From Dictyostelium discoideum (Eukaryota), in the NCBI GenBank assembly GCA_000004695.1, contig CM000150.2, positions 672,001-736,000 of the forward strand: a stretch of 64,000 bases of DNA. The letters run 5' to 3'. Every line of letters starts with the position of its first letter. The stretch's first letter is position 1. A program made the position numbers and the translations under genes. The notes beneath the pieces are model-generated. The model searched no databases and was not told the DNA's origin. It worked only from the letters and a program-made list of their open reading frames with translations. This document shows positions 11,499-23,010 of this stretch, piece by piece.

Positions 11499-14400
11499 TT
11501 ATTTGTAATTAGTTAGTTCTTTTTCTAATTCATTCTTTAAGTTTTTATCAACAATAACATTTTGAATTATATTTCTAACATGTTGTAATTTACCACTTTT
11601 TGTTGTATCTGCCTTATACTAATAAATTGAAAAAAGTATTAATAATTTGTTTTTATGTTTGGTTTTTTTTTTTTTTTTTTAATTTTAAAATACATTACTC
11701 TTTTAATTAAATCTGAATAAAATAAATTTGAATGAGAGAAATAAGAAATGTAATCATTTAAATAATTGAAATTACCATTTGCTAAAACTTGATAGAATAA
11801 AACATCAATCCATTCAGAGTAAGCATTTAAATTGTAAGCATTTGCAATGATTAGAGATTCTTTAAAGAAAGGACGAATGGTCATTGAGTGTTTTGCTTGA
11901 TTTTGACGTAAATTAATGATTGGAATTTCTGGTGATTTTATTTGTAAAGCAATTAAAGCACCCATTGAAATACAAGTTTGAGCAGTACGTTGACTTCTTT
12001 CTTTTGAATAATTATCAGCTGCATCTAAGAAATCTTTCATAATTGATAATAGTTCCTGTTTACTTGAATTACTATTCAATGATGAATTTGATTTATTACC
12101 GCCAATACCACTACCGCCATAGTGATTGTCAACCATTTTACCTAATGATTCTAATCTTGATCTTGCTTTTTGTTCATTATTTAATGCAATTTCACGATAC
12201 ATATTAAAACGTAAGAATAACATTTCCAATTTGTCTTGATATAATGGTTGTTTCTTCATTAGATAAGAATGTAATGCTAACTTTAAACCATTTTGATCTT
12301 CATGTTGATGAATTTTCTTTCTTAATAATAATTCAAATTGATTATGTTGAAGTAGAATATCGAAAATTGATTGTAACTCGTTATAGCATTGCATACCTGT
12401 AATTAAACGTACCAACAATTTATATTTACCAGCATCTGCATAATAGTTTACTCTTGATTTAACCATATTCAATACTAAAATTGTACCATCAACACTACAT
12501 GCAATGACAAAACAAAAATGAGCTCTAACAAACATTTCAACTTCAGCTTCCATACCTATTGGTGATGATAATTTACCACTACCATTATTACCACCACCAT
12601 TGCCACCACCACCACCTGTACCATTTAAGGTATTGCTCTGTTGTTTTAATGATGGTGAAACATAACTACCCATACCAGTATTACCAAAAATTCCAGGTGA
12701 ATTATCAACAGAGAAATAAGATTCATAATTTATACGTGTTGCTTCAATTAATTTCATACCAAATGTAAATGGATCTCTTCCAATTCTAATATATTCATGA
12801 AATTCTTCTGATGTCCAATTTGGGTCGATACCATTTGATTTACCTTCACCAACTCTACCTGGTTGATCATCTAAAGATAATGATAAAATACTCATATTTG
12901 GTGAAGTTGAACCACTTGATGATGTACTTTGATGAGATTTATTATATTGATTGATTATGGTTTCAGAGAATAGATCTGCTAATTGATCATTAATTTTATC
13001 GATATCTAAATGATTTGTGAAAATATAAGATTTGATTAATCTAAAACAATCTTTACCAAGTAATAGCAATTGATTAATGATATCATATGGATTTGAAATT
13101 AATAATTCAGAATAACCCATTGATAATTTCTCTGAAACATTAAATTTATTAATGATTGCTTTTGCCGCTTGTTTTGCTAAAGTACAACATGATGATAAAT
13201 TCTCTAATGTTGATAAAATATTTTCAACTGAAATTTCAAATCCACTATTACCGCCATTACCATTACCACTAGCACCTGTAAAAGTTGAAGATGATTGGAA
13301 TTGTGATTGTTGTGATGCTTTTAACCATCTACTTGTATTATAATCACGACTTAATTCATTAATTAATTCTTGTGGGAATTGATTTGGATTTGGTGAAATG
13401 GTTCTATTTACAATCTTTAACATTGTTGAAATTAAATCATAATCAATTGATTTATAATTAAATTGTTGTACGATTTGTTCTGCTTCAAAAAGTTGATTTG
13501 AATTTAATAATTTTGATAAAACATTATCCAATGCCTTTGGTTCTAATTGAATTGATTTAATTGGTGAAATTACTGATGAAACACTTGTTGTTGTTGTTGT
13601 TGTTGTTGTTTTATTATCTTTAATTGATGAAACAAATGATGGTTGTTGTAATGGTGAAGTTGAGAAAGAAGAATTTGTACCACTACTTGAAATTAATTGG
13701 AATTTTCTATTTCTTTGAGCATAATCTTTAATTGGTGAATCATGATGGTCAATTGGTGATGAAGATAATGAAGATGAAGGTGAAGCCATTGGTGAAGTGA
13801 AATAAGATAATAAATTTTGACTACTATTTTTAATACTATCACTATTACTATTATTATTATTATTATTATTGACACTCTTGAATCCACCAGAACCACGATT
13901 AGTACCACGTGGAAAAGTAATACTACGAGCTGGTGAAGTTGAAGGTGAAAAATCTTCATATGAACCATCATCATCGAATGGTCTATCATTAGATTCTTGA
14001 TTTGAAAGTCCAACTGATAATAGTAAAATTTGTTTCTTTAAATCTTCAATAAATGTAGTTGTAATTGATGATGATTTAGTTGGTGTTAATTGTGTAGTAT
14101 TACCACTACCACTACCCACAATATTATCTGTATTTATATTTTCAAAATAAGATTTTTCAAACCATTCAACAGCAATTGATAATAAAAATACTTTTTCTCT
14201 TGAAGGTTGAATATTATTACCACGATTATAGAATAACTCACCTGCGATATCAGGTTTTGATTGATGTTGAATGAAATATTGTTGACATTTCTTCCAAAGA
14301 TTAATTCTTTCTTGTTCAATTTCCCATAGACAACCTTGTTGATAATGATTGATTAGCGCATCAACCTCTGCCACAGTGACCAAATCCTTATCTAAATGAT

Positions 14401-20400: not shown

Positions 20401-23010
20401 GAATAATTTCAATTGATCTTCTATCAATTTTATTTCTATCATATAAATAAAATTCTGTTTTAAATTGAGAATTATCATCATTATCATCATCATCATCATA
20501 CTCATCATCACCATTATTATTAATACCACTACTAATAGTTACTCTATAATCTTTTTGATAAACAATTAATTTTGGTGTTATAAATAATTCAGTATTTATT
20601 AATACTTTATTATCATTATCTAAATCTTCAAGTGAAGGTATAATTAAACTATATAAACTATCATTTAATTGTTGTTGAACTTGTTGAAAATTATTATTAC
20701 TATTACTTTTAACTAAAATTGATGGTGATGATGATGATGATAATTGTTCATTATTATTATTCATTTCTTTATATAAATCATCTGCTATACTTTGTGATTT
20801 ACCTAAAACTTTATTATTATTGAAAACAAATGAATTCTCTCTTGACATTCTTCCAGAATTATTACCACTATTATTACCATTGGGATTATATAATGCATTT
20901 AAATTATTATTATTATTATAAACTGTAAAACCATTTAATGCATATGAATTTGAATTTTTCTTTGGGATCCATTGAGCTAATTGGCCAAATTCTTTTTTAT
21001 TATCTTGTAATTTCAATGAAGACTCTGTAGTTTCAAACCAATGAAATTGAAATATTTCATTTTTATTGGTTATATCCTCTGCATTTGAATATAACTCTTC
21101 ATCATCTGAATCCTCTGAATCAATAGGGTCAATTAATGTTGGTAGCTGTTGTTGTTGTTGTTGTTGTTCTTGTTGATCAGCACCACTAATTATTGGTGAA
21201 ATAAAAGAAGATGGTGAAAATATATCACATTCATCATCAATTTTATTAGTGTGACAATAATTGATTAAACCAATTGTTGAAAGTTGTTGAGTAATAGTAT
21301 TTTGAAAACAATAATCTAATGATAAAACATATAATTGATCATTTTGACATTTATAAACAATTGACATTAAATCGCTAGAAATTGAAATTTCATTAATTTC
21401 ACTAAATTTACTTGTAATTATCTTATCTTTATTTAAAAGTGATTTTAACTGAAATATTCCTCTCTTTTTACCATTTATATTCCAAATACTAGTTTCACCA
21501 TCTAATCTATTTACAATGAATAACCATTTATCAATATATTTAACTAAATGAATTGGTTTATCTTCTTCACTACTTTTATTATTATTATTATCATTATTGA
21601 TGATAGTAGTAATATTTTGATAATATTCTTTCTTTGAATTACCAATTGATAAATTAAATCTTCTTTGAATAAAAAATATAAAATTTAAACTATCAATTTG
21701 TTTAATCTTAAATAGAGCTATAACACTTTTCTCTACTAATAATACTAAATTACCTTGGTCATCACTTGATAAAATTTCAATACCTATAAAAAAAAAATAT
21801 ATATTTATATTAAAATTTACTATTTTTTTTTTTTTTTTTTTTGTTGTGTAAAAATTACTATTTTTAAATACTTACAACTTGTTGTATTTTGAGGTAAATC
21901 TAATTGTTCTAATATTTTTTGATATGGTAATATAAAATGATGTAATAAATAATTTTTAAATGTTTTAATTGTAATTTGATTTGGTTGTTGTTGTTGTTGT
22001 TGTTGTTGTTGTTGTTGTTGTTGTTGTTGTTGTTGTTGTTGTTGTTGTTGTTGTTGTTGTTGTGGTTGTTGTTGTGGTTGTTGAACGATTGGTGATATAA
22101 TACATAATGTTTTATTTAATTTGATATCAGATATTTTAATTGATGAAGAAGAATTTTGTAATGATTGTTGTGAATCTTGTGGATTAATCGTTGTAAGATT
22201 TTTAAAGATTGATAAAAGATGTAATGATGATTGATTATTATCTAATACAACTAAATTTGAAGGTATTGTAGTATTATCATTATTTGAATTATTGTATAAT
22301 GATATTGGCTCCTTTTGAACTTTTGGTGACATCCAACTATATTGAAATACCTCTGAAATACCTTCAATTTCAATCTTATAATCCTCGCTAGTTTGTTGTT
22401 GTTGGTAAAATCTTAAAATTTGAATATCTTTATCAATATATTCTTTATAGAAACTACTATTATGACTAAAGAAGTGATGATGATGACTACCAAAATGGTG
22501 TTGCTGCTGCTGCTGTTGTTGGTATTGGTGTTGTTGCTGTTGTTGATGATAATAGTAATATGGTTGTTTATATGTATAACTATTATTATTACTATTATTA
22601 TTGTTGTTGTTGTTGTTGTTGTTTAAAACGGAATTAAATAAAAATACAGATGATGATGAAGAGGATAAAGAAGATGATGGAGACGAATTTGTACTTGCAA
22701 TATTATTTTTATTATAATATAATGATGTAATAATTAATTTTTTATTATCAGATATGGAGAATGCTATATAATTTAAATCAATTGATAATTTGCAATCGAA
22801 ATTATTACTATCTCTATTATCTTTAAATATTTGATAATAATTACTGCCATCTTTATTAATATTGTTATTATCTTTATTATTATTATTATTACCATTATTT
22901 TGTGATTTATTTTGTAATTTATTTTGTGATTTAATTTGTCTATTTTTTTTATATATAGATGATTGATTATCTCTTTTAAATGTTCTTAAAAGAACAGATA
23001 AAGTCTCCAT
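11499..23010 (-). CDS. Giant low-complexity-rich protein (~3,779 aa), possibly spatacsin (SPG11)-like; exons 21876..23010, 11699..21783, 11499..11618
   Basis: ORF 21820..23010 ends at a GTAAGT donor (21875..21870, phase 1). A TTTATAG acceptor (AG at 21785-21784) rejoins the frame, and hand translation shows no stop between 21783 and the ATG at 21367, so it continues into ORF 11639..21367. A GTAATG donor at 11698 and an ATTAG acceptor at 11619 lead to a last exon encoding YKADTTKSGKLQHVRNIIQNVIVDKNLKNELEKELTNYK*. The conserved-looking C-terminal block (AHFCFVIACSVDGTILVLNM, KLLVRLITGMQCYNELQSIFDILLQHNQFELLLRKK, SEWIDVLFYQVLANGNFNYLNDY) matches my recollection of the Spatacsin_C region; this is unverified. 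Confidence 0.65.
15931..16067. repeat. (ATT)n/(AAT)n microsatellite (~45 units; poly-N in the giant gene). A second run lies at 16371..16490.
   Basis: Visible perfect trinucleotide runs. Confidence 0.9.
21984..22072. repeat. (TTG)n microsatellite (polyQ in exon 1 of the giant gene)
   Basis: Visible run. Confidence 0.9.

Follow-up and report, generated by a model that had tools for sequence, protein, structure and literature searches.

Two long open reading frames (ORFs) lie on the minus strand of a 64,000-nucleotide (nt) stretch of Dictyostelium discoideum AX4 chromosome 1 (contig CM000150.2, positions 672,001 to 736,000; hereafter the window, with a G+C content of approximately 20%), one at 21820..23010 encoding 396 amino acids (aa) and one at 11639..21367 encoding 3,242 aa, and they raise the question of whether they are two genes or pieces of one, and what protein is encoded there. 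Our analysis indicates that they very probably belong to one minus-strand three-exon gene whose product, of 3,779 aa, is orthologous to human spatacsin (SPG11), with the following layout in window coordinates:

21876..23010, minus strand: exon 1, residues 1–378 and the first base of codon 379
21784..21875, minus strand: intron 1, 92 nt, GTAAGT...TTTTTTTTTTATAG, 8.7% G+C, phase 1
11699..21783, minus strand: exon 2, the remaining two bases of codon 379 and residues 380–3740
20153..20365, minus strand: conserved block, residues 852–922, phmmer match to human spatacsin chain 8yad_B residues 480–550 (E=3.6e-8)
11613..12763, minus strand: Spatacsin_C domain, residues 3386–3742, Pfam PF14649, spanning intron 2
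11619..11698, minus strand: intron 2, 80 nt, GTAATG...TTTATTAG, 11% G+C, phase 0
11499..11618, minus strand: exon 3, a terminal micro-exon of 39 codons (residues 3741–3779) plus a TAA at 11501..11499

When spliced, the exons (1135, 10085 and 120 nt) sum to a multiple of three and are read to a single terminal stop, giving the 3,779-aa product. Exon 1 begins with the ATG at 23010, five codons downstream of an in-frame TAA, and encodes the N-terminal portion of a WD40 region broken by poly-N and poly-Q runs; its codon-usage log-odds are 0.61 in frame versus -0.9 and -1.4 in the other frames. Exon 2 encodes the remainder of the WD40 region, then a helical hairpin and a long middle region, and finally the greater part of Spatacsin_C. 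The exons have a G+C content of 24.6%, compared with the far lower values of the two introns, and both long ORFs owe their poly-K tails to read-through into these A-rich introns. A preliminary description of this DNA had already joined the two ORFs and a 39-codon terminal exon, and its ORF, donor and acceptor coordinates are all correct (GTAAGT at 21875 with AG at 21784; GTAATG at 11698 with AG at 11619).

The junctions were weighed against a metagenomic relative introduced below and against these dictyostelid entries:

P0011: Tieghemostelium lacteum DLAC_01274, 3,124 aa
P0012: Cavenderia fasciculata DFA_05713, 2,847 aa
P0013: Acytostelium subglobosum SAMD00019534_005710, 2,582 aa
P0028: A. 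subglobosum SAMD00019534_005720, adjacent locus tag, 221 aa

At junction 1, between exons 1 and 2, the first stop upstream in the frame of the 3,242-aa ORF is a TAA that lies inside the GTAAGT donor itself (21874..21872), and from 21871 to the first ATG at 21367 the frame runs open for 168 codons that contain no ATG. The 138 codons from the acceptor to this ATG were stop-free in 0 of 100,000 shuffles, hold 12 and 35 stops in the other two frames, and score 0.68 in codon-usage log-odds, similar to exon 1 (0.61) and exon 3 (0.65) and unlike the read-through tail (-0.12); the stop-free stretch by which the ORFs had been linked in the preliminary description is thus borne out. Because there is also no ATG from the stop of the 396-aa ORF to the acceptor at 21784, the protein must start within or upstream of the 396-aa ORF. 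Homology agrees with this continuity: the T. lacteum protein aligned by BLASTP to residues 354–698, across the junction at 378/379, and in a 13-sequence alignment full-length homologues of several eukaryotic lineages run on at both sides of the junction.

An arrangement of two genes, in which an independent 396-aa poly-K-tailed protein (21820..23010) lies next to a spatacsin whose start codon is the ATG at 21367, corresponding to residue 518 in the spliced model, would leave both ORFs intact from ATG to stop, and would resemble the annotation of the A. subglobosum orthologue as two adjacent entries of 221 and 2,582 aa. It is nevertheless very improbable, given that the 168 ATG-less open codons upstream of 21367 carry full coding signal and begin exactly at the donor, that the T. 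lacteum and C. fasciculata proteins, like full-length homologues of greater distance, run colinearly through the junction, and that a start at residue 518 would lose the propeller blades aligning to human residues 129 onward. The 396-aa product is, moreover, absent from the protein collection that we searched, in which short neighbours are present. With the orthologues colinear through junction 1, the 396-aa ORF is very probably not a separate gene, as the preliminary description had held, and the single spliced gene is the reading that we retain.

The exact position of junction 1 within this gene is slightly less constrained, since T. lacteum has two additional residues here and homology therefore places the junction only to approximately two codons, while 19 GT..AG pairs nearby keep the frame open. 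Alternatives include a 56-nt intron at 21875..21820, which would add 12 codons, and a donor at 21878. Only the 21875/21784 pair, however, has both a consensus donor and a T-rich acceptor tract ending in TATAG; the others have a non-consensus donor (GTTGTA) or poly-A instead of poly-T ahead of the acceptor, and none of the homologues contains anything equivalent to the peptide that would be inserted (LNFNINIYFFFIG), so that a different junction retains a slim chance.

At junction 2, between exons 2 and 3, the intron ends in a TTATTAG acceptor at 11619. The best witness that sequence comparison offers for this junction is P0001, a 310-aa uninterrupted ORF on the metagenomic contig L001 (JGI 3300028165, Ga0256797_1002838; 34.6% G+C), which is 69% identical over residues 3456–3775. 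The spliced tail scored 67 against the P0001 tail (...VKRYKTDPKGGKSQNMKTLLNIITDKSVRYELAREL), and 2,000 shuffles scored 22 ± 4.4 with none reaching 67. Around the splice the residues LIKR-YKAD (hyphen, junction) align without gaps to LIKKYKSE in T. lacteum, LIKKYKSN in C. fasciculata, LIKRVKTD in A. subglobosum and LVKRYKTD in the metagenomic relative, human spatacsin (..KKYK..) also passes through the junction without a gap, and the BLASTP alignment of T. lacteum to residues 3125–3775 crosses it at 3740/3741. If there were no terminal micro-exon, the protein would end in the read-through tail ...KRVMYFKIKKKKKKPNIKTNY at 11639, in a frame that does stay open for 19 codons. We regard this ending as extremely improbable: the read-through tail scored 22 against P0001, which equals background, whereas the spliced tail lies approximately 10 standard deviations over the shuffles; the codon-usage log-odds are -0.12 for the tail and 0.65 for exon 3; and four homologues continue gaplessly as ..KK/RYK.. 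and then ..DK...EL..EL, as the human ..KKYK.. does. The 39-codon terminal exon of the preliminary description, which had been added by splicing, is accordingly kept in the model.

The preliminary description had suggested a spatacsin orthologue and had named a search for Spatacsin_C as one check. Pfam returned that one family, PF14649, at E=2.1e-103 (345.9 bits versus a cut-off of 25), with the match covering model positions 2–295 of 296, and the identity is thereby supported. Human spatacsin was the only significant Protein Data Bank (PDB) chain for every segment of the protein: the C-terminal 553 residues, searched against all PDB chains, matched 8yad_B at human residues 2112–2396 (E=3.4e-36), the middle 2,052 residues matched spatacsin in two stretches (E=3.3e-18), and the N-terminal part matched it through the conserved block at residues 852–922. 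In the reverse direction, a published search from human SPG11 retrieved the D. discoideum protein XP_647252.1 at E=3e-29 (Hirst et al. 2011 Table S1, PMC3191125). The earlier view that the C-terminal block is the only strongly conserved part of the protein does not hold, because the block at residues 852–922 matches human spatacsin and conservation among dictyostelids is strongest at residues 821–995, with 68.6% identity to T. lacteum.

Human SPG11 residues 1–525 form a seven-bladed WD40 propeller followed by a helical hairpin and bind AP-5, and the alpha-solenoid after the hairpin pairs with SPG15 (bioRxiv 10.1101/2024.06.14.598999). Because of this layout in the cryo-electron microscopy preprint on AP5:SPG11-SPG15, we assign residues 852–922 to the hairpin and the preceding part to the propeller. 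The human segment aligned to this block, residues 480–550, takes in the last part of the WD40 and the AP-5-binding helical hairpin. An N-terminal profile built from 13 sequences matched human 8yab_D, the WD40-hairpin chain, at residues 128–525 (E=5.7e-46) and full-length human spatacsin at residues 129–601 (E=1.6e-63), although the metazoan spatacsins in the profile inflate these matches beyond what is to be expected from the Dictyostelium sequence by itself. When the trimmed N-terminus was modelled with AlphaFold, the confident parts were four-strand beta blocks that start in residues encoded by exon 1 (trimmed 164–244) and continue past the junction (trimmed position 261) at 262–304, 339–415 and 627–737, followed by helices at 742–858. 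All significant Foldseek matches to this model are WD40 propellers, several of them propeller-plus-solenoid proteins, at low TM-scores (template modelling scores), and IFT-A and other WD40 proteins rank at the top. The WD/beta-propeller flavour that had been noticed at the N-terminus is thus supported by both profile and Foldseek matches, and this part of the protein appears to be a WD40 propeller and hairpin homologous to human SPG11 1–525. The domain order is a WD40-type propeller with Asn/Gln/Ser runs, a hairpin at approximately 852–922, a long middle and Spatacsin_C.

The gene lies immediately upstream, on the minus strand, of DDB_G0268326/XP_647251.1, which is an exact match to the neighbouring ORF 10075-10953 (minus strand); the ORF 58241-59110 (plus strand) is an exact match to DDB_G0267734/XP_647264.1. 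It is almost certainly DDB_G0268328/XP_647252.1, because this accession and gene number come right after the ones assigned to the exactly matched neighbour DDB_G0268326/XP_647251.1. XP_647252.1, named 'hypothetical protein DDB_G0268328', is listed as the D. discoideum AX4 SPG11 (Hirst et al. 2011 Table S1, PMC3191125), and the spatacsin orthologue of this species has therefore been known and catalogued since 2011. The same table lists SPG15 as XP_643035.1 (DDB_G0276689) and the AP-5 subunits zeta (DDB_G0293988), beta5 (DDB_G0282421), mu5 (DDB_G0285113) and a sigma5, so that the AP-5 and SPG15 orthologues, whose presence in this genome had been proposed as a further check, are all on record.

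Several points weigh against the reading of one catalogued, full-length spatacsin gene. The equation with DDB_G0268328 is based on adjacent accession and gene numbers and not on a sequence match, and neither word-indexed searches nor an exhaustive HMMER search, for which the N-terminal 859 residues served as query, found a D. discoideum or close-species member in the libraries; the HMMER result suggests that the entry is missing from the library, not that it differs. Both junctions were derived from sequence logic and from orthologue models that are themselves predicted, P0001, a plain uninterrupted ORF, being the exception. The metazoan members of the N-terminal profile count here as well, as does the mediocre AlphaFold model (mean predicted local distance difference test (pLDDT) 53, predicted TM-score 0.50), in which the first 161 trimmed residues have a pLDDT below 35, so that the fold of most of exon 1 is predicted with low confidence. 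Finally, in the published literature on Dictyostelium AP-5, SPG11 or DDB_G0268328 we found no functional experiment.

Exact-sequence look-up of the 3,779-aa product and of both bare ORFs in the protein collection likewise gave no entry, although neighbouring AX4 proteins are present. Word-indexed searches with a junction query and an exon 1 query gave no match, and the negatives of this tool are weak for a long repeat-rich protein, as it overlooked T. lacteum DLAC_01274, which is present in the collection; a C-terminal query, dominated by low-complexity words, yielded P0001 alone. It is possible, if rather doubtful, that the public DDB_G0268328 model misses exon 1, the terminal micro-exon or both, comparable to the division of the A. 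subglobosum orthologue into two entries. The 3,779-aa model would in that case truly correct the annotation, by giving back the complete propeller that binds AP-5.

The exhaustive HMMER search, for which homopolymer runs had been removed from the query, retrieved 63 proteins. In UniRef, DLAC_01274 and DFA_05713 are named 'Spatacsin C-terminal domain-containing protein'; both are colinear with the D. discoideum protein, beginning close to the N-terminus and reaching the C-terminal tail, at 31–69% identity per block, and they differ in being shorter, chiefly through fewer homopolymer runs. By BLASTP, DLAC_01274 also matches residues 189–271, and it has a similar N-terminal start; identity over the large middle blocks is 38–47%. 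The 221-aa A. subglobosum entry starts exactly where D. discoideum exon 2 starts (MELISCD versus IEILSSD), a hint that the position of the intron is conserved; the spatacsin orthologue of A. subglobosum seems to have been mis-split into two adjacent entries of 2,582 and 221 aa. On contig L001, approximately 1,020 codons upstream of the Spatacsin_C ORF are 46% identical to residues 2334–3406; they are in a different frame from that ORF, and the 77-nt gap between the two (3066..3144) is either a small intron or a frameshift.

Homopolymer runs account for 259 residues of the whole D. discoideum protein. Two perfect (AAT)n arrays of approximately 38–40 units lie in the coding sequence, at 15953..16067 and 16372..16490, and encode Asn runs of 38 and 39 residues; a (CAA)n array with a 95% match at 21984..22083 encodes 26 Gln.

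Human spatacsin (8yad_B, 8yab_D; 2,443 aa) shares with the D. discoideum protein the order of parts, from WD40 propeller through helical hairpin and a long body, putatively helical in D. discoideum, to Spatacsin_C, and sequence matches at human residues 129–601 (by profile), 480–550 and 2112–2396; the genome that encodes the D. discoideum orthologue likewise encodes AP-5 and SPG15. The D. discoideum protein is approximately 1,340 residues longer, largely through Asn/Gln/Ser/Thr-rich linker, and outside the three blocks single-sequence similarity is undetectable. SPG11 has been likened to propeller-solenoid coat scaffolds (Hirst et al. 2011 and 2014), and the predicted model would be compatible with the general beta-propeller and alpha-solenoid layout of clathrin heavy chain, alpha/beta'-COP, IFT-A and CORVET/HOPS subunits. 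Unlike a member of these families, however, the protein shows no sequence-level membership, and the TM-scores are just 0.1–0.3.

From the human complex, from the joint distribution of AP-5, SPG11 and SPG15 on an all-or-nothing pattern, and from the co-occurrence of the partners in this genome, a mechanism can be proposed by analogy. The propeller and hairpin would dock the AP-5 adaptor, and parallel pairing would link the helical body to DDB_G0276689, the SPG15/spastizin orthologue, which would bind phosphatidylinositol 3-phosphate through its FYVE domain. On late endosomes and lysosomes the assembly would then provide a coat-like scaffold that serves retrieval and the reformation of lysosomes. 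As a catalogued orthologue of a known family, the gene has little significance beyond housekeeping; a full-length model with the N-terminal propeller and the true C-terminal tail is nonetheless what tagging or knockout in a tractable amoeba needs. Also of use are the apparent mis-split of the A. subglobosum orthologue and the finding that the supposed SPG11/SPG4 neighbourhood is not real.

That neighbourhood had been proposed in the preliminary description from a 'spastin-like' gene at 42031..44367 (minus strand), whose proximity to the SPG11-like gene would have placed two hereditary-spastic-paraplegia homologues side by side. The 778-aa ORF carries the Pfam domains AAA, AAA_lid_3 and Vps4_C, and no MIT domain was found in it by Pfam at E<=0.001. 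Against solved chains it scored 366.7–368.8 bits with fidgetin-like 1 and 326–328 bits with spastin (best scores, 368.8 versus 327.7), and the predicted product is a meiotic-clade AAA ATPase that is more FIGNL1-like than spastin-like. With the AAA neighbour closer to fidgetin-like 1 than to spastin, neither the 'spastin-like' label nor the SPG11/SPG4 adjacency survives. We had considered the SPG11 and AAA genes as functionally linked neighbours, and dropped this idea because the AAA gene is nearer to fidgetin-like 1.

Elsewhere in the window, an 85-nt GTAAGT...TTTTAG intron (54337..54253) separates the minus-strand ORFs 54312..57518 and 51287..54253, which its removal joins in frame, a split of the same type as that in the spatacsin gene; the joined product (51287..57518, minus strand) is 2,048 aa long and has only a sub-threshold TPR match. 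A kinase ORF that runs from 47838 on the plus strand, within 47427..50987, begins at Pfam Pkinase position 77, and the kinase N-lobe (MANIAALEPF...GSFGTVYKG...) lies in an upstream exon at 47427..47699, separated by a 132-nt GTAAGT...TTTTAG intron (47700..47831). ARAGORN and Rfam both detected a single RNA gene in the window, a tRNA-Thr with the anticodon AGT at 63884..63955 on the plus strand.

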